DNA of 64,000 nucleotides from Omnitrophica bacterium GWA2_41_15 (GCA_919902105.1 CAKKQO010000017.1:3305-67304); one strand, 5' to 3'. Numbered from the stretch's first letter, positions 2,134 through 57,833 are shown. Numbers and translations are program-made. The notes: a model not told the origin generated them from the sequence alone.

Positions 2134-4005
2134 GTGTCTATGGAGATATTCGATAAAAAGATGAGCCAGGAAAAAAAGGCAGCGCTGGAATTAGCCGAGG
2201 CCTCACGCCAGGCACAGTGGGATTACCCCAGTTTTGTGCGCGAGATTTTTCACGGTAAAGTCCCTTGGCATTTAATCAGCCCTTTTCCGAGGCAGTCCGA
2301 AGAAGATAAAAAAATCGGGACTGAATACCTGAATAAACTCAAAAGTTTTTTAGAAAAGAACCTTAATCCCGACGAGGTGGATAAAACCGGTGAAATCCCA
2401 GAAGCCGTGGTTAAGGGTTTAGCGGATTTAGGGGCCTTTGCCATAAAAATCCCTAAGGAATACGACGGTTTGGGTTTTAGCCAGGTAAATTATAACCGGG
2501 CAATCCACTTGGTGGCAAGTTACTGCGGCTCAACCGCAGTATTGCTTTCGGCCCATCAGAGCATCGGCGTTCCCTACCCTTTGACTGTTTTTGGAAATGA
2601 GGAACAGAAGAAAAAATACCTCCCCCGTTTTAGGAAAGGGGCGATTTCCGGATTTGCGCTTACAGAGCCCTCGGCAGGCTCAGACCCGCATGAGATGAAG
2701 ACAACTGCTACGCCCACTGAAGACGGAAAATATTACTTGATTAACGGCGAAAAATTATGGATTTCAAACGGAAACATCGCCGATATCTTAATTGTGATGT
2801 GCCTGACGTCTCCTAAGATAGAGAGAGGCAAGGAAAGAAAGCAGATTACTGCTTTTATCGTTGAGACAAATACGCCGGGATTTGAGGCGGCATACCGTTG
2901 TAGTTTTATGGGATTACACGGGGTAAAACTCGGCCTTTTAAAATTCAATAATGTAAGAGTGCCTAAGGAAAATATTTTATGCGCTGAAGGCCAAGGGTTA
3001 AAGCAGGCCTTTGTCACGCTAAATACCGGCCGGCTTACCGTGCCTGCGGCTGTAACCGGAATGAGCAAGTGGTGCCTTTCGGTTGCGCGGCATTGGGCGA
3101 AGGAAAGAAGGCAGTGGGGTGCGCCTGTAGGTGAGCACGAAGCAGTAGCCGTAAAACTTGCCAATATCGCCGCAAGCACCTTTGCCATGGATGCGGTTAC
3201 TTGGCTTACCTCGCATATGGCAGACGAGAAAAAGTTAGATATCCGGCTTGAGGCGGCGATGGCAAAGTTATTCTGCACCGAAGAGAGCTGGAGGGTGATT
3301 GACGATACTCTTCAAATCCGCGGCGGGCGCGGTTTTGAGACGGGGCCTTCGCTAGCGGGGCGCGGTGAAAAGGGTTATGCGGTGGAGAGAACTTTTCGCG
3401 ATGCCCGGGTAAACTTGATTATTGAAGGGACGAGCCAGATTATGCGGCTTTTTATCGCCCGCGAGGCGTTAGACCCGCATTTAAGAAGGGTACAGTCGGT
3501 TTTAAATCCCAAGAGGGATATATTCAGCCGACTAAAGAATGCCTTTTCGCTAGGTTTTTATTATGCCTTTTGGTTTCCTAAATTGTGGTTTCCTTCTTTT
3601 GGGCTAGGCACAAGCCGAGATTTACCTATTATCCTAAGCAGGCACTTGCGTTTTGTGCGAGCTGCAAGCAAGAGATTGGCCCGCGAGTTATTTTTGCAGA
3701 TGATGATTTATCAGCAGCGTTTAGAATCAAAGCAGAATGTTTTACAAAGATTTGTCGATATCGGGACAGATTTATTTGTTATCTCGACCGTTTGTTCTTA
3801 CGCGGCAAGTTTAGAGAAGGGAAAAAGCGCCCAATATGACGGCTCAGCGATAGAATTAGCGGATTTATTTTCTCGTCAGGCAAGGACGCGTATTATGCGG
3901 AATTTTAAAGACGCATGGCGTAACCACGACAAGATGTTAAACCATGTCGCCAAGCAGATTGTAGCCGGAAAGTTTGAATGGTTAGAAAACGAGATTATTA
4001 AGTAA
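2134..4005 (+). CDS. Acyl-CoA dehydrogenase, long form with C-terminal extension
   Basis: 623-aa ORF. ACAD blocks GFALTEPSAGSDP, KLWISNG, LQIRGGRGF, IIEGTSQIMRLFIAREAL. Start is GTG 2134 or ATG 2140. Follows the FadB-like gene by 3 nt. Confidence 0.85.
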   Translation: MSMEIFDKKMSQEKKAALELAEASRQAQWDYPSFVREIFHGKVPWHLISPFPRQSEEDKKIGTEYLNKLKSFLEKNLNPDEVDKTGEIPEAVVKGLADLGAFAIKIPKEYDGLGFSQVNYNRAIHLVASYCGSTAVLLSAHQSIGVPYPLTVFGNEEQKKKYLPRFRKGAISGFALTEPSAGSDPHEMKTTATPTEDGKYYLINGEKLWISNGNIADILIVMCLTSPKIERGKERKQITAFIVETNTPGFEAAYRCSFMGLHGVKLGLLKFNNVRVPKENILCAEGQGLKQAFVTLNTGRLTVPAAVTGMSKWCLSVARHWAKERRQWGAPVGEHEAVAVKLANIAASTFAMDAVTWLTSHMADEKKLDIRLEAAMAKLFCTEESWRVIDDTLQIRGGRGFETGPSLAGRGEKGYAVERTFRDARVNLIIEGTSQIMRLFIAREALDPHLRRVQSVLNPKRDIFSRLKNAFSLGFYYAFWFPKLWFPSFGLGTSRDLPIILSRHLRFVRAASKRLARELFLQMMIYQQRLESKQNVLQRFVDIGTDLFVISTVCSYAASLEKGKSAQYDGSAIELADLFSRQARTRIMRNFKDAWRNHDKMLNHVAKQIVAGKFEWLENEIIK

Positions 4006-4135
4006 GCCCCGTTAGAGATGACGCTTTTCTTATAACAAGCGGGGTTTGGTAATTATAGAAGCAGAAATTTTATCAGCAGGATTACGAAGAGTAGACGGTC
4101 GTCGATGACGACCTATCTCTAACGGGGTAAGCCCC
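4002..4135. mobile_element. Candidate MITE-like palindromic element E0 filling the whole intergenic gap
   Basis: 13-bp inverted repeat CCCCGTTAGAGAT (4007-4019) / ATCTCTAACGGGG (4115-4127). Internal hairpin GTCGTC-gat-GACGAC. 9-bp direct repeat GTAAGCCCC at 4002-4010 and 4127-4135. Confidence 0.4.
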
Positions 4136-4137
4136 TT

Positions 4138-6192
4138 ATGGATATTCCTTTTCATATTTTTAAAAAAGACCCGGATAAATCTTTCATTGTTGATTACGCC
4201 CCGATTTTTTCCGGGCTCAATATTCTCGAGAAAAACCTTATCATTGAAAAAAGCAAAGTAGTGGAATATAAAAAAGACGATTTGATTTATAAAGAACTTG
4301 ACCCTCCGGACGGATTCTATTGCGTAATTACCGGCAGGATAAAAATTGCTACCGGAAAGAAAACACTGGAATACCTCCACTGCGGAAATTATTTCGGGAT
4401 TATCTCGCTTTTAACCGGGGATGCGCATTCGGTAAATGCCATAGCCGCCAACGACTCTAAAATCCTAAAAATAGAAAAAGATGATTTTGGCGAGATTTTA
4501 AAGCGCATTCCGCACTTAGCTATTGATTTAAGCAAGACCCTTTCGCGCCGTCTGCGCAAAAAAGAGGTTAAAGAAAAAAGGATTTTTGAAAGCAATATCA
4601 TTTCGGTCTTTAGCGCCGCAGGCGTTGGCGGGCGCACGATGTATGCGGCAGACTTGGCGGTTAATTTAAGGAAAGAAACCGAAAGGAACGTTATTTTAGT
4701 TGATATAAGCAAAAACCCGGTTGGCGTATGCCGGGCATTAGGGATTATCCCGCGGGATGACTTACAGCTTCCCGCGATTAAATTAGATACGCCGTTTTTT
4801 ACCGGAGGAATAATCCAAAAGGCAATTATTAAAGACGAGGCGAAAGGTGTAGATATTTTAAATGTGGCGCATGAAAGCGCTGAAGGGAAATTCGCAGCAA
4901 ACCTAAGCGCGCTACTAACCCACCTTGCCAGCGAATACCACTACATCATTGTTGACTTACCTTGCGAAGTTGACGCTGTGGTAAACCAAGCGCTGAGGCA
5001 ATCAGACAGCATTAATATAATTACTGATAATCTCAGCGCCAACCTTATAAAAACCGAGACGTTAATTTCCGAATTAGAGACGAAGATAAATTCTGCCTTT
5101 GACAAAATAAAAATAATTTTAAATGTCAGGGCTGGCGAGAACCGCGTTAATTACGAAGAAACCCTTAGTGCGCTTAAATATAAGATATATGCTACTCTGC
5201 CGGCATTTTGGGAGAAGGCTTTAGAAGGCGCATCGATGCCAGAGAGCCTCGAAGCTGAATATAAAAAAGCAATACGCCGGATTGCCAGGGAGGTCGGGGA
5301 TGTGCGCGTGGGTTTGGCTTTAAGCGGCGGGGCGGCTTTTGGCCTTGCGCATATCGGGGTAATCAGGGTATTAGAACGGGAGAATATTCCGGTGGATGTG
5401 GTAGTCGGCTCCAGTATGGGCGCTCTTATTGCCGCCTTCTGGGCGGTAGGATTGGATAATGATGAATTAGAGAAGGTCGCCTTGGAATTTAACAGCCGCA
5501 AAAAAGCATTTCATTTGATGATGGATTTTGGTTTTCCGAAGCTCTCTTTTGCCAAAGGAAGGAGAATAAAAAAATTGTTACATAAGGTTCTCGCAGATAA
5601 AACATTTGCCGATACAAAATTTCCGCTGAAAATCGTCGCCTGTAATATAAGCAAGCGCTCTAAATTTATCTTTGAGTCGGGCCCCCTTGTGGATGCGGTA
5701 ATGGCCAGTATTGCCATTCCCGGCCTATTTGCTCCAGTTAAAGTAAATGGGGATTTGTTGGTCGATGGCGGTATAATTGAGCCGGTCCCGGTGGGGACAT
5801 TAGTCAAAATGGGGATAAAAAAGATAATTGCGGTGGATACTTTGCCACGGCCGGAAAATATCTTAGAAAATTACGAATACTACTTGAAAATGGCAGAGGC
5901 GCAAAGTAAGCAGATGGAAGGGCGCAGTTTTTTAGACAGGATTATTTCCCGCATGAAAATGCGTTTTAATCAAATGTTTTTTCCTAATATCCTTGACATC
6001 ATCGTCAATAGCATACAGACATTAGAGTCTGCTGTTTCGGAGTCCGATTGCCAAATGGCTGATATCGTGTTGAGGCCTTTTGCCGTAGGAGTAGACTGGT
6101 TTGAGTTATATAAGTCGCAAGCATTAATAAAGAAAGGCATAGAAGAGGCAAGAAGGGCCATGCCTGATATTAAAAATCTCCTCAAAGAATAA
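4138..6192 (+). CDS. Three-domain protein: cyclic-nucleotide-binding domain + degenerate MinD/ParA-like domain + patatin-like phospholipase
   Basis: 684 aa. CAP_ED-like N-terminus (YFGIISLLTGDAHSVNAIA). Middle ISVFSAAGVGGRTM resembles a deviant Walker A lacking the Lys. Patatin motifs LSGGAAFG, GSSMG (GxSxG), DGG. Confidence 0.8.
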   Translation: MDIPFHIFKKDPDKSFIVDYAPIFSGLNILEKNLIIEKSKVVEYKKDDLIYKELDPPDGFYCVITGRIKIATGKKTLEYLHCGNYFGIISLLTGDAHSVNAIAANDSKILKIEKDDFGEILKRIPHLAIDLSKTLSRRLRKKEVKEKRIFESNIISVFSAAGVGGRTMYAADLAVNLRKETERNVILVDISKNPVGVCRALGIIPRDDLQLPAIKLDTPFFTGGIIQKAIIKDEAKGVDILNVAHESAEGKFAANLSALLTHLASEYHYIIVDLPCEVDAVVNQALRQSDSINIITDNLSANLIKTETLISELETKINSAFDKIKIILNVRAGENRVNYEETLSALKYKIYATLPAFWEKALEGASMPESLEAEYKKAIRRIAREVGDVRVGLALSGGAAFGLAHIGVIRVLERENIPVDVVVGSSMGALIAAFWAVGLDNDELEKVALEFNSRKKAFHLMMDFGFPKLSFAKGRRIKKLLHKVLADKTFADTKFPLKIVACNISKRSKFIFESGPLVDAVMASIAIPGLFAPVKVNGDLLVDGGIIEPVPVGTLVKMGIKKIIAVDTLPRPENILENYEYYLKMAEAQSKQMEGRSFLDRIISRMKMRFNQMFFPNILDIIVNSIQTLESAVSESDCQMADIVLRPFAVGVDWFELYKSQALIKKGIEEARRAMPDIKNLLKE

Positions 6193-17212: not shown

Positions 17213-17230
17213 TGTCCCGCCGCAGGCGGA
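17213..17230 (+). repeat. GC-rich mini-hairpin of the CCGCC-GNA-GGCGG family (intergenic copy)
   Basis: GTCCCGCC-gca-GGCGGAC directly after the STAS-PilZ stop codon. Confidence 0.6.
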
Positions 17231-30633: not shown

Positions 30634-32079
30634 ATGACCCACCCCCAAGCAATCCGCTATTTAGAATCCTTAGTAAACTACGAGAAGAAATCCTATTATC
30701 ATTATAAACACGCATTTAAATTAGAGGGCATAAAGAATTTTTTAGAAATCTTGGGCAATCCGCAGGATTCTCTACGCTGTATTCATATTGCCGGCACTAA
30801 AGGTAAGGGTTCAACCTGTGCCTTTATTGCTCATATCTTAAGAGAGGCCGGACTTTCCGTCGGACTTTATACCTCGCCGCATTTATCGGATTTCCGCGAG
30901 CGCATTAGGATTTTAACCATACCACCTACTACCTATCACCTATCACCTGAATTTGAGGGGATGATTTCAAAACAAGCGTTATCGCGCTTGGCTTGGCGCC
31001 TAAAGCCGACAATAGATAAATTTAACCACAATTCTAAATACGGCCCGCTGACATTTTTTGAAGTTTATACGGCACTCGCCTTTATTTATTTTAAAGAAAA
31101 AAAAGTGGATTTTGCGGTTTTAGAGACGGGTTTGGGCGGAAGATTAGATGCCACAAATGTGATTAATCCTTTAGTCTGCGTAATTACCCCGATAAGTTTA
31201 GAGCATACTCAACTTTTGGGCAATACATTAACGAAAATTGCCCGCGAGAAGGTGGGTATTATCAAGAAGTTTCGCCCCTCGCCCCTCGCCCCTCGCCCCT
31301 CGGTAGTAATCAGCGCGCCGCAGGAGGAAGCAGCAGCTAGGGTGATTAGGGATAGATGTAGAAAAGTTGGCGCTAGATTATATGAAGTAGGGAAGGATAT
31401 AAGATACAAAAAATCCGAAATCCGAAATCCGAAATCCGAAATAAATCTAAAATCCAAAATCAAAAAATTTAAAATCCGCGGAATTTTTAATGAATATAAT
31501 AATTTAAAAATAAAACTTTTAGGTAAGCATCAGCTGGTGAATGCCGCCACGGCAGTGGGGGCAGTTGAGGCGTTAAAAAAATACGGCATTAGTGTAAATA
31601 TCGATGCGATAAGAAAAGGGCTTTATAATACGTTTTGGCCGGGCAGATGCGAAATTGTATCTAAGAAACCGTTAATTGTTTTAGACGGTGCGCAGAATGT
31701 TGCTTCAGCTAAGGCATTAAAAGAAACGATTAAAGAAAATTTTTCCACCGAAGGCGGATCCGCCTCCGGCGGAAAGTATAAAAAGTTAATTCTGGTTTTA
31801 GGGGCTTGTTGCGATAAAGATATTAAGGGAATATGTAATGAGTTGTGCTTGATGGCAGACGAAATCATCTTAACCAAAGCCAAAAACCCGCGGGCGGCGG
31901 AGCCGGAGCATATCAGGGTTCAGGGTTCAGGGTTAAGGGTTAAGGAAAAAATACATTTAACAGAAAATGTAGAGGAAGCGATTCAAAAAGCAGAAGAGCT
32001 TACTAGCAAAGAAGATTTAATCCTGATTACGGGGTCGTTGTTTGTGGTGGCAGAGGCGAGGGAAGTGTTGCAGAAATGA
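30634..32079 (+). CDS. folC: Folylpolyglutamate synthase / dihydrofolate synthase, with several low-complexity in-frame inserts
   Basis: 481 aa. HIAGTKGKGST P-loop, LETGLGGRLDATN, GKHQLVNAATA, LDGAQNV blocks. Start abuts the purH stop. Confidence 0.85.
   Translation: MTHPQAIRYLESLVNYEKKSYYHYKHAFKLEGIKNFLEILGNPQDSLRCIHIAGTKGKGSTCAFIAHILREAGLSVGLYTSPHLSDFRERIRILTIPPTTYHLSPEFEGMISKQALSRLAWRLKPTIDKFNHNSKYGPLTFFEVYTALAFIYFKEKKVDFAVLETGLGGRLDATNVINPLVCVITPISLEHTQLLGNTLTKIAREKVGIIKKFRPSPLAPRPSVVISAPQEEAAARVIRDRCRKVGARLYEVGKDIRYKKSEIRNPKSEINLKSKIKKFKIRGIFNEYNNLKIKLLGKHQLVNAATAVGAVEALKKYGISVNIDAIRKGLYNTFWPGRCEIVSKKPLIVLDGAQNVASAKALKETIKENFSTEGGSASGGKYKKLILVLGACCDKDIKGICNELCLMADEIILTKAKNPRAAEPEHIRVQGSGLRVKEKIHLTENVEEAIQKAEELTSKEDLILITGSLFVVAEAREVLQK
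30923..30950 (+). repeat. Heptanucleotide tandem array in folC (CACCTAT-type, 4 units)
   Basis: CACCTAC TACCTAT CACCTAT CACCTGA. Translated as PTTYHLSP. Confidence 0.85.
31272..31302 (+). repeat. Heptanucleotide tandem array in folC (TCGCCCC x4)
   Basis: TCGCCCC x4 then TCGG. Translated as RPSPLAPRPS. Confidence 0.9.
31411..31480 (+). repeat. Heptanucleotide tandem array in folC (AAATCCG x4 plus degenerate AAAATCC-type units)
   Basis: AAATCCG x4, then AAATAAATCT AAAATCC AAAATCA AAAAATTT AAAATCCGCGG. Translated as KSEIRNPKSEINLKSKIKKFKIRG. Confidence 0.9.
31742..31775. repeat. 34-bp GC-rich palindrome, folC copy (31/34 identical to the mnmE copy)
   Basis: TTTCCACCGAAGGCGGATCCGCCTCCGGCGGAAA. 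Two A-C mismatches in the stem. Translated as STEGGSASGGK. Confidence 0.85.
31923..31957 (+). repeat. Heptanucleotide tandem array in folC (TCAGGGT x3, TAAGGGT, TAAGGAA)
   Basis: Direct reading. Translated as RVQGSGLRVKE. Confidence 0.9.
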
Positions 32080-32323: not shown

Positions 32324-32410
32324 CAATAAATTAGTTTAAAAATTACCAGTTTCATTTCTAAACTATTGCGAGGAGATAGGCGCAAAACGCAAAACTTTAA
32401 CTGGGAGGGG

Positions 32411-32929
32411 ATGATGAGGAAGGTATTATTAAAAGTCAGCGGTGTAATACTTATAATTTGGGGCTTAAGTTGGATTATCCCCTTATGTTTTATGCATGCA
32501 GAAAAGCGTCTATTACATACCGAAACGCGTGTTGTACATGACGTTATGCTCGGCATACCTTTATTAGGGGAAAGAATGCCCGTTATCCTGAGAAGATCCT
32601 TAAGGGTGACTGAGGAAATTATGCTATTCTTAGGTGGTCCTATCTTAATATTCGCGGGTATAAGATTATTTTCTTTTAAAAGATTGGCGCGGAAACTAGC
32701 CATATTTTCCTATTTAATAGTTTTAGCATACACTGTTTTTCTAAATATTTCTTGGTATATGTGTTCTACAGCGATAGACAACAGCGATGAAAGCCCATTT
32801 AGTATCGTAAGCATTATAGAATACTTTCGTTATTGGCCGCCACGTTATCTTATTGAGTTACTTATTCTTATGCTTATTCCCACATTTTTTATTGTTATTT
32901 TATTTAGGTATAAGGAACAATTTAAATAA
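32411..32929 (+). CDS. Hypothetical multi-TM membrane protein
   Basis: ATG 32411 after GGGAGGGG. Four or five predicted TM helices. No motif recognised. Confidence 0.4.
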   Translation: MMRKVLLKVSGVILIIWGLSWIIPLCFMHAEKRLLHTETRVVHDVMLGIPLLGERMPVILRRSLRVTEEIMLFLGGPILIFAGIRLFSFKRLARKLAIFSYLIVLAYTVFLNISWYMCSTAIDNSDESPFSIVSIIEYFRYWPPRYLIELLILMLIPTFFIVILFRYKEQFK

Positions 32930-33092: not shown

Positions 33093-33320
33093 ATGCATAG
33101 AATATCTTACGCAGTTAAAATCGAGCCTTCTTTGATAAAAAAAGTAAGGGAATTTTGCCTGCAGCACGGGGTAAAACAAGGGTTTTTTATTGAAAAAGCG
33201 CTCAGGGAACAATTAGCCAGAGAGGAATTGATTGAAGACCTGATAGATTTTAAAAATCTGCGTATTCAGGAGGGTTCCGCGATTAGCTTTGAGGATTATT
33301 TGAAAAAGAGGGCTTCGTAA
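33093..33320 (+). CDS. Type II antitoxin (small DNA-binding protein upstream of a RelE/ParE toxin)
   Basis: 75 aa. Stop overlaps the toxin start (TAATG). Acidic C-terminal half. Confidence 0.6.
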   Translation: MHRISYAVKIEPSLIKKVREFCLQHGVKQGFFIEKALREQLAREELIEDLIDFKNLRIQEGSAISFEDYLKKRAS

Positions 33321-33571
33321 TGTATCGCCTCAAAATAATCGCCCATGCCCAGAAAGATCTCGATACTTTCCACGGGAAAGATTTTGAAAGCATAAAAAAG
33401 AAAATATTGAGCCTTTCGACTAATCCCCGTCCTTTTGGTGCAATAAAACTGACGCAAGAAGAAAGTTATCGTATTAGGGCAGGTGATTGGCGTATTTTAT
33501 ATAGAATAGACGATAAACAGAAAGAAGTAATTATATATCGTATCAAACATAGAAAAGAAGCCTACCGCTAA
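33320..33571 (+). CDS. RelE/ParE-family type II toxin
   Basis: 83 aa. Pattern KDLD....I...I..L..NP.P.G..KL......YRIR.GDWRILY.I.D....V.I..I.HRKEAY is typical of RelE/ParE. Confidence 0.75.
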   Translation: MYRLKIIAHAQKDLDTFHGKDFESIKKKILSLSTNPRPFGAIKLTQEESYRIRAGDWRILYRIDDKQKEVIIYRIKHRKEAYR

Positions 33572-33611: not shown

Positions 33612-35099
33612 ATGATTGATACAAGGTTTAATCTAACCGACACAATCGCGGCGATGGGGACGGGGCTAGGGGAAGCCGGTATCGGAATTGTGCGCATTAG
33701 TGGAAAAGATGCGCTAAAGATTGCCGATAAGATTTTTGTTGGTAAAGACGGTAACAAACCGTCGCAATTTAAAACATATACGCTGCATTATGGGTGGATT
33801 GTGAATAGTCCACAGTCCATAGTCCGTAGTCCACAGAAAAAAAAGAAGAAACTACCGACTACCGACTACCGACTACCGACTAATATTATCGATGAAGTGC
33901 TTTTGACGGTAATGCGCGCGCCCAAGAGTTATACTAAGGAAGATGTAGTGGAGATAAATTGCCATGGAGGGATTGTGGCAATGCGGGCGGTATTAGATTT
34001 GGTTTTGGCGAATGGGGCGCGCCTTGCCTCTGGCGGTGAATTTACCAAGCGTGCCTTTTTAAACGGAAGGATTGATTTAAATCAGGCAGAGGCAGTTCTG
34101 GATATAATTCGCGCCAAAACAGATAGTGCGCTTAAAATAGGGACAGAGCAGTTAAGAGGGATATTGTCTTTGCAAATAAATAAACTGCATAAGGATTTGT
34201 TAGGCGTACTTACGATATTAGAAGCAAATATTGATTTTCCCGATGAAGAAATTGGCGCGGTTAATTTAAAAGAGGTTAATAAAAAGCTCAAGACCACAAA
34301 GAATAAACTAAAAGATATTGTAGATTTGGCAAAGCGCGGGCAAGTGCTGCGCGATGGTATTGGCGCGGTTATCTGCGGCAGGCCCAATGTGGGCAAATCC
34401 TCGCTTTTGAATGCGCTCTTAAGAAGGGAGCGCTCTATCGTTAGCCCGGTTGCCGGCACTACCCGTGACACAATAGAGGAAATTATCGATATAAAAGGCA
34501 TTCCAATTAGGATTGTAGATACTGCAGGAATTATTGAGCCGCGGGATTTAGTGGAAAAAAAGGCGGTTTCGCGCTCTAAGCGCGTTATTGATCTGGCGGA
34601 TTTGGTGATTTTGCTTTTTGACGGCAGCCAAAAATTAAACAAAGAAGATAGTGCGCTGATTAAAAAATTTCCTCCGAAGGCGGATCCGCCTTCGGAGGAA
34701 AGCAAAAAGCAAGTTATCGCGGTTATAAATAAAATAGACCTAAGGCAAAAAATAAAAAAAGAGAAACTAAATAAAGTATTTGAATGTGTAATTGAGCTTT
34801 CAGCGAAGAAAATAAAGAATATAAATTTATTAGAAGATGCGATTGCGGGTTTGGTGTTTGGCGGAAAAATCAATAAATCCGAGTCTCTACTGGTGAGTAA
34901 TTTAAGGCATATTGAGTTGCTTAGGGGAGCGCAAAAAACTCTTGGCCAGGCCTGCGATTCGCTGGATAATAAAGTGTCTCTTGAATTCATTGCCCAGGAT
35001 ATTAAGGCGGCCTTAGGTTATTTTGATGATATTTTAGGTAAGAAATTTTCCGAAGACCTATTGGATAAGATATTTGGGGAGTTTTGTATCGGTAAATGA
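33612..35099 (+). CDS. mnmE: tRNA modification GTPase MnmE with in-frame repeat inserts
   Basis: 495 aa. DTIAA..T, SYTKEDVVEINCHGG, GRPNVGKSSLLNAL, VAGTTRD, DTAG, C-terminal FCIGK. Confidence 0.85.
   Translation: MIDTRFNLTDTIAAMGTGLGEAGIGIVRISGKDALKIADKIFVGKDGNKPSQFKTYTLHYGWIVNSPQSIVRSPQKKKKKLPTTDYRLPTNIIDEVLLTVMRAPKSYTKEDVVEINCHGGIVAMRAVLDLVLANGARLASGGEFTKRAFLNGRIDLNQAEAVLDIIRAKTDSALKIGTEQLRGILSLQINKLHKDLLGVLTILEANIDFPDEEIGAVNLKEVNKKLKTTKNKLKDIVDLAKRGQVLRDGIGAVICGRPNVGKSSLLNALLRRERSIVSPVAGTTRDTIEEIIDIKGIPIRIVDTAGIIEPRDLVEKKAVSRSKRVIDLADLVILLFDGSQKLNKEDSALIKKFPPKADPPSEESKKQVIAVINKIDLRQKIKKEKLNKVFECVIELSAKKIKNINLLEDAIAGLVFGGKINKSESLLVSNLRHIELLRGAQKTLGQACDSLDNKVSLEFIAQDIKAALGYFDDILGKKFSEDLLDKIFGEFCIGK
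33806..33880 (+). repeat. Two heptanucleotide arrays joined by an A-run inside mnmE (TAGTCCA-type x4, ACTACCG x4)
   Basis: TAGTCCA CAGTCCA TAGTCCG TAGTCCA (33806-33833), A-rich linker, ACTACCG x4 (33851-33878). Translated as SPQSIVRSPQKKKKKLPTTDYRLPTN. Confidence 0.9.
34668..34701. repeat. Perfect 34-bp GC-rich palindrome inside mnmE
   Basis: TTTCCTCCGAAGGCGGATCCGCCTTCGGAGGAAA. Translated as FPPKADPPSEE. Confidence 0.9.
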
Positions 35100-35204
35100 A
35101 GACATAACTTATGGAGCGATAGCGAACATAAGTTATCTGTCTGAATTTATCCCGAAGCGTGTGCAGGAAATTTCAAAGAAATTTCCAAACGCTTACGCAA
35201 GGGA
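35095..35204 (-). repeat. BH family copy F, stop-codon-abutting orientation
   Basis: AAATGAA (the TGA is the mnmE stop) + GACATAACTTATG...CATAAGTTATCTGTC + TGAATTT + ATCCCGAAGCGT[GGAAATTTC-aaa-GAAATTTCC]ACGCTT..GGGA. Confidence 0.7.
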
Positions 35205-35216
35205 AAATGAGGGTTT

Positions 35217-40497: not shown

Positions 40498-41130
40498 ATG
40501 GCGGAAATTGGGAGGGCGAGCAAAATGAAAGGGAAGACGGAAATATTTGTTTTAATCATAATCTTCCTCTGCGGCTTGGCAGGCTTTTCTTTATATAAGT
40601 ACGCAGGGATAAATATAGATTTAGGCCGCGAGAAGAAGCAGTTGATAGAGTTAGAAGCAAGAAATAATGCAATAACTCAAGAATTAGGAGAACAGAAAGT
40701 GCGCCTTAGCCAAGTAAACGAGGAGAAGAAAAACCTTGAAGAAGAAGTAACTCTCGGCAGGCAAAATTTAGGCCAGCTGAAGCTAGAATTAGCGGATAGC
40801 CGCAAGTCACTGGCAAGTTTACAAAGGACGGTCGAAGAATTAACTGCCGTTAATCAGAATTTAAATCAGGAACAGGCTGCTCTAAAGGCAAAAATCGAAG
40901 AATTAACCAGCCGAAAAAATACTTTAGAGGCGAAGATAAGTTCTGTAGAAGAACTTAAACAGATGTTGAAAGATTTAATAAAGTCAAAAAGAACCCAGCG
41001 CCACAGGAAGGCGAGAGCAAAGATAAACACAGAACAAGAATCAAAAGATAAAAACCATGGTTATATCATTTATCAGGGAAAACCTACCTTTAAGCCTAAG
41101 ATTTCTATACAGGTAAGACCCGTCCTTTAA
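40498..41130 (+). CDS. Membrane-anchored coiled-coil protein
   Basis: 210 aa. One TM helix, then a long heptad-rich segment (LEEEV..LKLELADSRKSLASLQ..). The start could be ATG 40525. Confidence 0.4.
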   Translation: MAEIGRASKMKGKTEIFVLIIIFLCGLAGFSLYKYAGINIDLGREKKQLIELEARNNAITQELGEQKVRLSQVNEEKKNLEEEVTLGRQNLGQLKLELADSRKSLASLQRTVEELTAVNQNLNQEQAALKAKIEELTSRKNTLEAKISSVEELKQMLKDLIKSKRTQRHRKARAKINTEQESKDKNHGYIIYQGKPTFKPKISIQVRPVL

Positions 41131-41216
41131 AGGTATCAGGACGGTCTACCCTTGTAGGGTAAGACCCGTCCTTTAAAGGTATCAGGACGGTCTACCCTTG
41201 TAGGGTAATACCCGCC
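41112..41216 (+). repeat. 46-nt tandem duplication (2.3 copies) spanning the gene end; each unit forms a hairpin
   Basis: GGTAAGACCCGTCCTTTAAAGGTATCAGGACGGTCTACCCTTGTAG at 41112 and 41158, with a partial third copy. Contains AGACC(C)GTCCT/AGGACGGTCT and TACCC/GGGTA stems and a GTAG motif. Confidence 0.85.
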
Positions 41217-55397: not shown

Positions 55398-57833
55398 ATG
55401 CAATACGATTTTTCCCAAATAGAAGCTAAATGGCAGAAGTTCTGGCAGAAAAACAAGAGCTTTCGCGCCGCCATCGATAAAACCCGCAAAAAGTTTTACT
55501 GCCTTGAGATGTTTCCTTATCCCTCAGGTAGGATACATATGGGCCATGTGCGTAATTATACTATCGGTGATGTAATTGCCCGCTATAAGTGGATGCAGGG
55601 TTTTAATGTGCTGCATCCAATGGGCTTTGACGCCTTTGGCCAGCCGGCAGAAAACGCCGCGATAAAGAATAATTCCGACCCCAAAGAATGGACCTATAAA
55701 TGCATAGATTGGATGAAGGCTCAACTTAAGAAGATGGGGTTTTCCTATGATTGGGAAAGGGAAGTTGTGACCTGTGGCCCCGCATATTATCGCTTCAACC
55801 AGTGGATATTTTTAAAGATGCTCGAGCGCGGGCTTGCTTATAAGAAGGCATCAACCGTTAACTGGTGCCCGAGCTGCGAGACAACGCTCGCCAATGAAGA
55901 AGTTATTGACGGCGCATGCTGGCGCTGCAAGAACGCTGTAGCCCAAAAAGATTTAGAGCAGTGGTACCTTAAAATTACCGCCTATCAGGAAAGGTTATTG
56001 GAAGATTTAAAGCAATTAGCGCATTGGCCCGAACAAGTAATTGCGATGCAAGAGAATTGGATAGGCAAGAGCTCCGGGTGCGAAATTTATTTTAAGCTTC
56101 GCGATAGCGGGGAGATTATCCCGGTTTTTACCACCCGCGCAGACACTATTTTTGGCGTAACTTATATCGTGCTGGCGCCGGAGCATACAATAATATCAAA
56201 AATTTCTGCCGAAGGCGGAAAAGGCCATATATCAAACCTCAAAGAAGTTGAGCAATATATTGAAGCAGCGAAAAAGAAAACAAAATTAGAAAGAATTGAA
56301 AGAGATAAAACCGGCATACAGTTAAAAGGTATTACAGCCATAAACCTGGTAAACAACGAAGAAATACCTGTTTTTATTGCCGACTATGTGCTTATGGAAT
56401 ATGGCACCGGCGCAATTATGGCTGTCCCTACGCACGACCAGCGGGATTTTCTCTTTGCCAAAGAGCATAATCTGCCGATGCGGATTGTAATTCAGGCTCC
56501 AGGCTCCAGGCTGCAAGCTCCAAGCGAAATGAAAGAAGCATACGAGGGCGATGGGGTGCAAGTTAATTCTGGAGAATTTGACGGTTTACCTAACCAAGAA
56601 GCGAAGATAAAGATTGCGCAGTGGATAGAAGATAAGGGTATGGGAAAAATCTCCACCCAATGGCGCCTAAAGGATTGGCTGATTTCCCGCCAGCGTTATT
56701 GGGGGACACCCATTCCGGTGATTTACTGTCCAAAGTGCGGTATTGTCGGTGTGCCTTACGAAGACCTGCCGGTTGAGTTACCTGAAAAAGTAAAGATTAC
56801 AGGCGTTGGCGGAAGCCCGCTTTCTAAGGTAAAGGAATTTGTTGTGGTAAAATGCCCGAAATGTAGCGGCCGCGCCCTTCGGGAAACTGATACTATGGCG
56901 ACTTTTATTGATTCTTCGTGGTATTTCTTAAGATACTGCTCGCCGGATTTTGACAAGGCGCCGTTTGATAAAGACGAGGCGGCCTATTGGATGAAGGTGG
57001 ATCAGTATATCGGCGGCATTGAGCATGCGGTCCTGCATTTATTATATTCGCGTTTTTTTACCAAATTTTTTAAGGATTTAGGGATGCTTGATTTTTCCGC
57101 CGAAGGCGGAGATGAGCCGTTTGATAAATTGCTTACCCAGGGGATGGTGCTTAAAGACGGCGAGGTAATGTCAAAATCACGCGGCAATATAGTGGATCCG
57201 GATGAGATTATTAATAAATATGGCGCAGACACCCTGCGGCTTTTTATTCTTTTTGCCGCACCACCCGAAGCGGAACTTGAATGGAACGATACAGCCATAG
57301 ACGGCTCTTTTAAATTTTTAATGCGCATCTTTCGCCTTTTAGAAAAAGCCGCTGATAAAACTCCGAGCGCCGAACTCTTGCGCCGCCTGCATAGTACGAT
57401 TAAAAAAGTTACTGAAGATATGGAGGGCGGTTTTAAGTTTAACACTGCGATTAGCGCAATTATGGAATTAGTCAACGAAATCTATAAAAGTGATTCCGTA
57501 AACAAGGAAATTCTAAAGACGCTTACGATTTTAATCTCGCCGTTTGTCCCGCATATGGCAGAAGAGATGTGGCAGGCACTCGGTGCAAAAGAAAGCATCT
57601 TAAAAGTCCGCTGGCCTGAGTTTAAGCCTGAGTTTTTAAAATTAGACAAAGTTACGCTGGTTGTGCAGATTAACGGCAAGGTGCGCGAAAAAATAGAAGC
57701 AGAAGTTGATATAGATAAAGAAAGCCTAAAAGAATTAGTTTTAGCCAGCAATACTGTAAAGAAATGGATTGAAAATAAGCCGGTCAAAAATTTTGTAATT
57801 GTGCCGAATAAATTAGTAAATATCGTAGTTTAA
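55398..57833 (+). CDS. leuS: Leucyl-tRNA synthetase
   Basis: ATG 55398. FPYPSGRIHMGHVRNY (HIGH), KMSKSRGN-type VMSKSRGN (KMSKS), and CP1/zinc motifs. Confidence 0.9.
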   Translation: MQYDFSQIEAKWQKFWQKNKSFRAAIDKTRKKFYCLEMFPYPSGRIHMGHVRNYTIGDVIARYKWMQGFNVLHPMGFDAFGQPAENAAIKNNSDPKEWTYKCIDWMKAQLKKMGFSYDWEREVVTCGPAYYRFNQWIFLKMLERGLAYKKASTVNWCPSCETTLANEEVIDGACWRCKNAVAQKDLEQWYLKITAYQERLLEDLKQLAHWPEQVIAMQENWIGKSSGCEIYFKLRDSGEIIPVFTTRADTIFGVTYIVLAPEHTIISKISAEGGKGHISNLKEVEQYIEAAKKKTKLERIERDKTGIQLKGITAINLVNNEEIPVFIADYVLMEYGTGAIMAVPTHDQRDFLFAKEHNLPMRIVIQAPGSRLQAPSEMKEAYEGDGVQVNSGEFDGLPNQEAKIKIAQWIEDKGMGKISTQWRLKDWLISRQRYWGTPIPVIYCPKCGIVGVPYEDLPVELPEKVKITGVGGSPLSKVKEFVVVKCPKCSGRALRETDTMATFIDSSWYFLRYCSPDFDKAPFDKDEAAYWMKVDQYIGGIEHAVLHLLYSRFFTKFFKDLGMLDFSAEGGDEPFDKLLTQGMVLKDGEVMSKSRGNIVDPDEIINKYGADTLRLFILFAAPPEAELEWNDTAIDGSFKFLMRIFRLLEKAADKTPSAELLRRLHSTIKKVTEDMEGGFKFNTAISAIMELVNEIYKSDSVNKEILKTLTILISPFVPHMAEEMWQALGAKESILKVRWPEFKPEFLKLDKVTLVVQINGKVREKIEAEVDIDKESLKELVLASNTVKKWIENKPVKNFVIVPNKLVNIVV
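56203..56221 (+). repeat. GC-rich mini-hairpin TTTCTGCC-GAA-GGCGGAAA inside leuS
   Basis: Direct reading. Translated as SAEGGK. Confidence 0.6.
56493..56527 (+). repeat. Heptanucleotide tandem array in leuS (CAGGCTC-type, 5 units)
   Basis: CAGGCTC CAGGCTC CAGGCTG CAAGCTC CAAGCGA. Translated as QAPGSRLQAPSE. Confidence 0.85.
57094..57110 (+). repeat. GC-rich mini-hairpin TTTCCGCC-GAA-GGCGGA inside leuS
   Basis: Direct reading. Translated as FSAEGGD. Confidence 0.6.

Follow-up and report, generated by a model that had tools for sequence, protein, structure and literature searches.

A two-armed heptamer-array insert in mnmE of an Omnitrophota bacterium, predicted to fold as a hairpin, and its counterparts in related lineages

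The DNA of Omnitrophica bacterium GWA2_41_15 analyzed here (GCA_919902105.1 CAKKQO010000017.1:3305-67304), a stretch of 64,000 nucleotides (nt) that as a whole is called the window, carries within its mnmE gene an in-frame insert composed of two arrays of heptanucleotide repeats on either side of an A-rich spacer. Positions are counted from the first letter of the window, and labels such as L001 or L081 denote the loci with which it was compared. The mnmE open reading frame (ORF) at 33612-35099 contains the Pfam domains TrmE_N, MMR_HSR1, and MnmE_helical, and its product matches solved MnmE structures (E = 1e-82) and is 100% identical to an NCBI/ENA protein from a Candidatus Omnitrophota metagenome-assembled genome. 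The gene and the parts of the insert are the following.

33612..35099, plus strand: mnmE, tRNA U34 modification GTPase, 495 amino acids (aa) (ORF, Pfam, solved structures)
33804..33884, plus strand: in-frame insert of 27 codons (81 bases; residues 65-91, NSPQSIVRSPQKKKKKLPTTDYRLPTN) (alignments, loop-length census)
33807..33836, plus strand: arm 1, imperfect heptamer array AGTCCAC AGTCCAT AGTCCGT AGTCCAC AG (Tandem Repeats Finder: period 7, 4.3 copies, 82% matches)
33837..33850, plus strand: A-rich spacer AAAAAAAAGAAGAA (sequence, fold)
33851..33882, plus strand: arm 2, perfect heptamer array (ACTACCG) x4.6 (Tandem Repeats Finder: period 7, 100% matches)
33806-10/33878-82, 33814-17/33871-74, 33820-24/33864-68, 33826-31/33857-62: predicted helices between the arms (RNA fold)

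The stretch 33806-33882 consists of the arm 1 units, the spacer AAAAAAAAGAAGAA, which encodes a lysine run and has A-rich counterparts in most relatives, and four ACTACCG units plus ACTA. Sequence and Tandem Repeats Finder agree in this with an earlier note on the same DNA, which had described TAGTCCA-type and ACTACCG arrays around an A-run in mnmE, except for the trivial point that the run has 8 A's, not 9. Exact tandem arrays of at least three copies, counted for periods of 4 to 12, occur four times in the window, all with period 7, and the heptamer repeats of the window thus exceed chance. Neither arm unit was found elsewhere in the 64 kb, and neither the units nor the whole insert had a second copy in the other fetched loci beyond the homologous sites.

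In the MnmE translation, ...HYGWIV is followed by NSPQSIVRSPQKKKKKLPTTDYRLPTN and then by IIDEVLLTVMRAPKSYT..., the insert being flanked by the conserved strands HYGWIV and IIDEVLLTV. Among 25 aligned Omnitrophota MnmE proteins, these flanks are near-invariant and the stretch between them ranges from about 4 to about 50 residues; the basal loop in relatives is about 7 residues long, and approximately 23 of the 27 insert codons are surplus over it. The MnmE structure of Nostoc (3GEH) has a short turn at this position. The alignment of orthologues that the earlier note had recommended therefore bears out its view of the segment as an insertion in a short loop of the N-terminal domain. The structure modeling that it had also recommended succeeded in part: an AlphaFold2 model computed from the 25-sequence alignment displays strands at residues 53-63 and 93-102 with a low-confidence coil between them, and because its mean predicted local distance difference test (pLDDT) value is 58.9, it is usable only for this strand-coil-strand layout and not as a confident model of a surface loop. 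The best explanation is that the insert lies at the tip of a β-hairpin loop of the MnmE N-terminal domain, and its peptide is probably a tolerated, lysine-rich surface loop that is disordered.

The insert is not an artifact of assembly. L081, from an independent Logan assembly whose flanking gene has 88% nt identity, shares it with equal copy numbers and differs by two point substitutions, both in arm 2; L082 and L164, replicate assemblies of another organism, contain identical related inserts. Because L081 keeps the insert and the replicates agree, misassembly, the objection that the earlier note had raised against its own observation, was ruled out. The same architecture recurs across NCBI, ENA, JGI, and Logan assemblies.

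The two arms of the window are predicted to pair with one another. TAGTC of arm 1 is complementary, in register, to GACTA in each unit of arm 2, i.e., at five of seven positions, and folding yields four helices of 4 to 6 bp separated by 2-nt mismatches and closed by an A-rich loop, with the spacer and the inner arm ends (33832-33856) unpaired. The minimum free energy of the insert RNA is -21.6 kcal/mol, compared with -8.9 +/- 2.8 kcal/mol for dinucleotide shuffles (z -4.46; 0/200); folded as DNA, the minus strand reaches z -4.2 and the plus strand z -1.9. When the array character was preserved in the null model, p was 0.013 for permuted units and 0.10 for random heptamers of census composition. 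The window by itself does not decide whether the pairing is meaningful, and it is the relatives that settle how the arms are related. A known RNA family was rejected as an identity of the insert, a search of Rfam having given no match at E <= 1.

Relatives' DNA was taken from GTDB genomes, JGI metagenomes, and look-ups of exact proteins. The window insert is homologous to the inserts of L081, L166, L102, and L126 (alignment A4). Arm 1 of the window and of L166 is identical at 27 of 30 positions, the MnmE proteins of the two being only 66% identical. In L166 (fold z -3.0), arm 2 is made of (GTGGACT)-like units, the reverse complement of arm 1, and arm 2 of the window aligns with the (GTGGACT)-type arms of L166, L102, and L126 with the GAC columns kept. 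The keeping of these columns shows the ACTACCG array to be, as judged from the alignment, a re-homogenized descendant of an arm that was formerly the reverse complement of arm 1. In other lineages, the architecture and the 96-nt span are kept and the units are very different:

L082: arm 1 GCTGCAA, arm 2 AAGCCTG
L167: arm 1 GTCATGC, arm 2 CAAGACA
L169: arm 1 AGGTCAC, arm 2 GMAGCCT
L171: arm 1 GGTTCAT, arm 2 ATGAACC
L004: arm 1 CCGGTAAG, arm 2 CCGGCACA
L168: arm 1 8-nt unit, arm 2 8-nt unit
L170: arm 1 8-nt unit, arm 2 8-nt unit
L084: arm 1 ATCCCGTT, arm 2 CGGGCAA

The mnmE loop of L171 forms a near-perfect hairpin, and fold z values at this loop are -5.7 for L084 (-6.7 in the loop-insert scan) and -6.3 for L004. 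For 26 distinct loop inserts taken together, z has a median of -1.5, whereas segments taken from the same genes as controls have 0.06 (Wilcoxon p = 5e-4). The AGTCCAC type of insert occurs in distant MnmE lineages and is missing from the closest ones, L082 and L083; L031, L129, and L045 have a single arm or arms that are not complementary.

For the analysis of covariation, nine sequenced lineages with different units were used. Arm 1 pairs with arm 2 of its own lineage at a mean of 21.0 of 33 positions and with arm 2 of other lineages, even at the best register, at 14.9 +/- 3.1. RNAalifold, with the caveat that its consensus structure derives from these same nine sequences, produced a 13-pair helix with compensatory double changes in 13/13 pairs, in which 80.3% of the cells pair, compared with 48.6 +/- 3.7% when partners were shuffled between lineages (0/500) and 25-33% when the register was slid; for a version with 28 pairs, the values were 67.5% versus 48.9%. 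The comparison shows, at the level of sequence, that the arms change together across lineages. A templated mutational process would give an equal covariation signal without selection. The statement of the earlier note that the two arrays are unrelated to each other is contradicted by the predicted hairpin, by the reverse-complement arms of L166, L171, and L084, and by this covariation. Among adjacent pairs of arrays in the loci, an inverted core of 6 nt or more is present in 4/11 (null probability 0.009), and two of these four are the perfectly inverted intergenic pairs that lie upstream of a folC-like start; a hairpin reading of every adjacent pair was rejected, the pairs at 31411/31443 in window folC and in L031 and L036 being direct variants of one unit.

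A loop census was carried out on the 114 MnmE cluster representatives nearest to the window, with residues counted after HYG. The loop measures 30 aa in 42 of them, all with different sequences, and smaller modes lie at 7 aa (16/114), 16 aa (10/114), and 23 aa (7/114); this 7-aa ladder was weak in the first DNA set and is clear in the protein census. In the 30-aa loops, the two arms mostly share their peptide period (7/7 in 14, 8/8 in 18). Because of this census, we regard the element as old and length-conserved, with the unit length coordinated between its arms, a reading drawn from protein sequences. The arm copy numbers of L082 (3.3/5.3, versus 4.3/4.6 in the window) and the series of 16, 23, and 30 aa suggest steps of one unit.

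Arrays of this period are frequent well beyond the insert. The array census comprised 820 kb of Omnitrophota loci, sampled only around mnmE, and 329 kb of controls from other phyla. Exact period-7 arrays of at least three copies numbered 37 in the former and 1 in the latter, and the 820 kb held four exact arrays of period 8 and at most one each for periods 5, 6, and 9-12; nearly all lie within long ORFs, mostly of housekeeping genes. Tandem Repeats Finder listed 109 heptamer arrays with 90 distinct units, for which trinucleotide enrichment revealed no common core motif. A site-specific enzyme recognizing a shared core was rejected accordingly, only A/C-richness and a depletion of T-rich and stop-like words being present.

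The reading frame leaves a clear imprint on these arrays. Specifically, of the 136 period-7 arrays, 107 are contained in frames that run free of stops for at least 600 nt, and the lengths of these coding arrays peak at 30-34 nt (52/107), fall into a trough up to 52 nt, and reappear at 53 and 56 nt, as expected for a seed of 9-13 nt enlarged by 21 or 42 nt; non-coding arrays are more scattered. Cyclic stop codons turn up in 11/107 coding units when the sense strand is read, in 42/107 when the antisense strand is read, and in 17/29 non-coding arrays, and the coding units are A/C-rich on the sense strand. A reading-frame filter, in which a seed gains three units (+21 nt), would lead to about four copies. 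The suggestion of the earlier note that arbitrary 7-mers are amplified to about 4 copies holds for the units (90 in 109 arrays, no core), whereas the copy number is largely an effect of the reading frame. Addition of 21 nt as the only cause of the conserved total length was rejected, versions with 8-nt units having an equal 30-aa loop.

In the window itself, eight heptamer arrays with eight different units are distributed over mnmE, folC, and leuS, the latter two genes contributing the following.

30923-30948, 31272-31302, 31411-31476, 31913-31945: five heptamer arrays at four variable sites of folC (Tandem Repeats Finder)
56493-56522: leuS array CAGGCTC CAGGCTC CAGGCTG CAAGCTC CAAGC

The folC units differ in sequence from those of mnmE, as the earlier note had stated. 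Orthologues of folC that are 70-78% identical (L164, L165) have arrays at matching sites, with equal length and the units TCAGGGT / GCAGGCT / GCAAGCT at site 5 and with equal length and TCGCCCC versus TCGTCYY at site 2; at several folC sites, each copy has a unit of its own at an unchanged array length, a pattern of concerted evolution without change of length. Units of the CARGCTS type are found in window leuS, at folC site 5 (L164, L165), and in the mnmE arms of L082/L164, a recurrence which hints that units may be shared between loci and genomes. Within single genomes, (ATCCAGC) x4.9 is present in L100 both at 918-951 (a folC-like gene) and at 2216-2249 (the mnmE loop), an AAAAGTC array occurs twice in L036 (4187 and 5167), and L003 has identical heptamer arrays at 4228 and 4366. 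The earlier note had preferred arbitrary amplification "rather than spread of one repeat sequence," which is too strong a statement in view of units recurring within (L100, L036, L003) and across genomes.

Array pairs were also observed between genes. Directly upstream of a folC-like start, such pairs lie at 3544-3637 in L001, 3574-3670 in L007, and 76-146 in L129; those of L001 (GTAACTC / GAGTTAC type) and L007 are perfectly inverted, and that of L129 is weakly complementary (inverted core 3). They may represent a terminator or a hairpin in the 5' untranslated region, and in their units they are similar to the TAACTGA repeats known from Beggiatoaceae and cyanobacteria. At 2704-2733 of L041, in a gene that looks purH-like when translated by eye, stands the array CCCCAGT CCCCAGT CCACAGT CCACAGT, one substitution away from the arm 1 unit of the window. 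We take the L041 unit to be the cyanobacterial heptamer of the short tandemly repeated repetitive (STRR) family STRR1, and CCACAGT presumably resembles STRR1 and STRR3 as defined by Mazel in 1990.

Several known systems resemble the insert in part. Heptanucleotide repeats form the most abundant class of long simple sequence repeats (LSSRs) in many bacteria, and polymerase slippage has been proposed as their origin (Mrazek 2007, cited through PMC4692102 and PMC4679880). The published idea that 7 nt corresponds to the polymerase footprint (PMC4692102, PMC4679880) would account for period 7. The mnmE arrays agree with the LSSRs of Mrazek, Guo and Shah (2007) in their head-to-tail 7-nt units, in the prominence of period 7, and apparently in the turnover of length and sequence between relatives. 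To this class belong the STRR heptamers of cyanobacteria and the GGGAATC / GGGGAYT repeats of Xanthomonas/Nostoc, inverted pairs of arrays are also known from the Xanthomonas heptamers, and published LSSRs are mainly intergenic with few unit families per genome. The mnmE arrays consist of head-to-tail units within the 5-11-nt range of LSSRs and are longer than chance, and period 7 predominates in the sampled Omnitrophota loci around mnmE; in contrast to the LSSR pattern of non-triplet units mainly outside coding regions, 107/136 arrays are coding. The Omnitrophota arrays further differ from LSSRs in their location mostly in housekeeping genes, their near-arbitrary units, their frame-preserving lengths, and, at mnmE, their paired and co-evolving arms. 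What is new relative to simple sequence repeats of the Mrazek type is that they are coding, quantized by the frame, and, at the mnmE site, paired and co-evolving. Searches of a paper library that combined Omnitrophota with tandem or heptamer repeats turned up no account of such arrays. Membership in the cyanobacterial STRR families was rejected because there is no fixed dispersed heptamer, the eight window arrays having eight units and the 109 arrays having 90 distinct ones, with some recurrence (L100, L036, L003).

Intrastrand template switching in imperfect inverted repeats was reportedly described by Ripley in 1982 and by the Lovett laboratory, at single hotspots and with Escherichia coli reporters. 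By analogy with such quasipalindrome mutagenesis, one hairpin arm could be copied into the other and give compensatory-looking changes without selection; the known cases concern single hotspots, whereas mnmE would represent long-term co-evolution of two arrays, with the mechanism inferred here. Rickettsia palindromic elements (RPEs) are said, following Ogata's work of 2000, to sit in frame in protein-coding genes. The mnmE insert likewise places hairpin DNA in frame in a permissive surface loop of an essential protein with the peptide as a passenger, but with RPEs a single sequence of 100-150 nt is present in dispersed copies, and the mnmE insert has microsatellite arms and no other copy. Membership among RPEs or MITEs (miniature inverted-repeat transposable elements) was rejected because there are no other copies of the arm units in the window or, outside homologous sites, in the loci. 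The Borg-element paper reportedly describes tandem repeats in ORFs that create disordered protein regions, have unit lengths that are multiples of three, and lack paired inverted arms. The Omnitrophota arrays may be compared with these as perfect, fast-evolving tandem repeats that arise in ORFs independently at many sites; unlike Borg repeats, they are built of 7- or 8-nt units, for which each of the three frames is used. As in structured RNAs, compensatory base changes were found, with the caveat that the structure was derived from the same sequences, but the insert is not a described RNA family because no Rfam match was obtained. A phase-variable contingency locus, typically a surface or antigen gene, was rejected as well because frameshift variants were looked for and not seen: every version keeps the frame, the gene is a housekeeping one, and neither window and L081 nor the replicates vary.

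A second kind of repeat lies in the same gene. At 34671-34698, mnmE contains in frame the 28-nt perfect palindrome CCTCCGAAGGCGGATCCGCCTTCGGAGG (DNA fold z -7.9), which encodes part of PPKADPPSEE and has a near-identical copy in frame in folC at 31745-31772. Comparison of the site in L081, L082, L083, L164, and L165 revealed stepwise nested growth: only CCGCCTTCGGCGG is present in L082, its inverted duplication in the window, and one more nested hairpin in L081; the palindrome is missing from relatives that are more distant. From these sequences, CCTCCGAAGGCGGATCCGCCTTCGGAGG looks like an RPE-like dispersed palindrome growing by inverted duplication, and it is a closer RPE analogue than the array insert. 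Hairpins of the form CCGCC-NNN-GGCGG also lie at 57097-57109 in the leuS ORF (CCGCCGAAGGCGG) and at 17217-17229 (CCGCCGCAGGCGG), which, including the folC copy, makes 3 matches in the window versus 0.08 expected, and the L139 mnmE loop has a similar nested hairpin, CCGCCGAAGC...GCGAAGGCGG. GC-rich palindromes are nested in heptamer arrays at 5178-5260 of L015 and in the mnmE loops of L126 (CCCCGACGTTTCAGTCGGGG) and L139 (a 30-nt perfect palindrome, CTGTAGTGGAGGTTTAAACCTCCACTACAG); either heptamer arrays seem favored as landing sites, or hairpins seem to seed arrays.

The surroundings of the gene show further repeats and local differences. Between folC and mnmE, a ParE-family toxin gene (33320-33571; Pfam E = 9.5e-11) and a small upstream partner ORF occupy 33093-33571. 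In L166, folC directly overlaps mnmE, so that the ParE cassette and the ORF at 32366-32929 are local insertions in the window. The mnmE-folE spacer (35100-35216, 117 nt) has the inverted repeats ACATAACTTAT...ATAAGTTAT and GGAAATTTC..GAAATTTCC; L082 has a spacer of 6 nt here and L083 one of about 220 nt. In L166, positions 2961-4452 encode a folE product of 512 aa with two GTP cyclohydrolase I matches around a faint LAGLIDADG match, and this gene may contain an intein. Between ORFs at 41112-41214, a 46-nt unit is repeated 2.2 times with 98% identity, each unit having the inverted repeats GACCCGTCC...GGACGGTC.

Taking the arrays and their relatives together, we lean toward reading the insert as an old two-armed microsatellite hairpin that is written and rewritten by replication errors, with the peptide as a passenger. 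Slipped or misaligned copying between neighboring units would homogenize an arm, intrastrand template switching across the hairpin (quasipalindrome correction) would copy changes from arm to arm and so keep complementarity, and purifying selection would discard outcomes that break the frame, create stops, or disturb the fold; at the birth of an array, compensated frameshifts are conceivable, and paired arms could supply the compensation. We infer that replication error and not selection on the peptide has shaped the arrays. A number of observations weigh against this reading. The pairing in the window, taken alone, is suggestive and of no more than moderate significance (p from 0.013 to 0.10, according to the null model). 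Neither slippage nor template switching was seen directly as an event, and the copy numbers of the window and L081 are equal despite 12% nt divergence. For an array to grow from 1.x to 4.x copies within an essential gene, three unit steps have to coincide, or frameshifts have to be tolerated or compensated. The 30-aa loop shared by 7- and 8-nt periods looks more like a constraint on the nucleic-acid element or transfer, and the 27/30 identity of arm 1 between window and L166, in spite of 66% identical proteins, likewise looks more like constraint or transfer than drift. Finally, identical units at different genes of a single genome (L100, L036, L164) are not predicted by purely local processes.

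Part of this is what a hairpin under selection would produce, and we consider it possible, if on the doubtful side, that the insert is a selected cis-acting element of RNA or single-stranded DNA within the coding sequence, which as candidate roles might determine how stable the mRNA is, be cut by RNase III, pause translation, or bind a protein making periodic contacts. The compensatory changes at 13/13 consensus pairs, the symmetry center and total length conserved in 42/114 whether the unit has 7 or 8 nt, the 90% conservation of arm 1 between 66%-identical proteins, and the perfect inverted arrays of L001 and L007, whose position upstream of the folC-like start makes a regulatory role plausible, are all consistent with it. 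Template switching, however, gives equal covariation without selection; 16/114 relatives have a 7-residue loop without the element and others have single or non-complementary arms (L031, L129, L045); the Rfam search found no match; and a selected hairpin leaves unexplained why the arms are tandem repeats and why partnerless arrays exist in the folC and leuS loops. A broader proposition, namely that the hairpin is a selected cis-acting element in mnmE, similar to that upstream of folC, or else the footprint of a dedicated or lineage-specific activity writing templated repeats at fixed sites with the length unchanged, would be a minority choice of ours; such a repeat-writing activity would explain why different genes of one genome carry identical units and why the length stays at 27 codons with 7- and 8-nt units alike.

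That a ready-made hairpin of the MITE, RPE, or REPIN kind was spread between sites and genomes seems improbable to us. The repeated (ATCCAGC) x4.9 of L100 and AAAAGTC of L036, the CARGCTS-type units at folC site 5, in mnmE arms, and in window leuS, the presence of the AGTCCAC type in distant lineages and its absence from the closest (L082, L083), and the existence of a true dispersed palindrome in window mnmE and folC would all be in line with mobility or copying; yet the window and the fetched loci have no second copy of unit or insert outside homologous sites, neither terminal inverted repeats nor target duplications can be seen, the 109 arrays have 90 distinct units, and inserts at a given site match in position and length but not in sequence, which in-place rewriting fits better. 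Very improbable is the view of the earlier note that two independent, unrelated heptamer expansions came to adjoin by chance in a tolerant loop: in direct orientation, the two units have just 2 nt in common, arrays without a partner are frequent elsewhere, and p is 0.10 against random heptamers of census composition, but 5/7 in-register complementarity with a fold z of -4.5, arms 2 of L166 and L171 that are the reverse complement of arm 1, and covariation across nine lineages speak against it. Least credible of all is a phase-variable contingency locus or a misassembly. Non-triplet coding repeats are the classic substrate of the former and repeats are error-prone in assembly; against this, window and L081 have the same copy numbers, replicate assemblies are identical, all arrays keep the frame in housekeeping genes, and the architecture is seen in NCBI, ENA, JGI, and Logan assemblies.

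Non-triplet microsatellites, supposedly barred from essential coding sequence, are abundant in these Omnitrophota genes, long-lived as arrays, and continually rewritten. The mnmE site offers a natural series of dozens of lineages for the study of concerted evolution and hairpin-templated mutation in bacteria, and the same series informs on how selection for the frame quantizes repeat length and how conserved enzymes gain disordered loops. For annotation, it advises caution, as compensatory covariation within coding regions may reflect the way mutations arise and need not point to a functional RNA. Should the hairpin indeed be selected, it would represent a new class of regulatory element embedded in coding sequence, in a phylum, Omnitrophota, that has never been cultivated.

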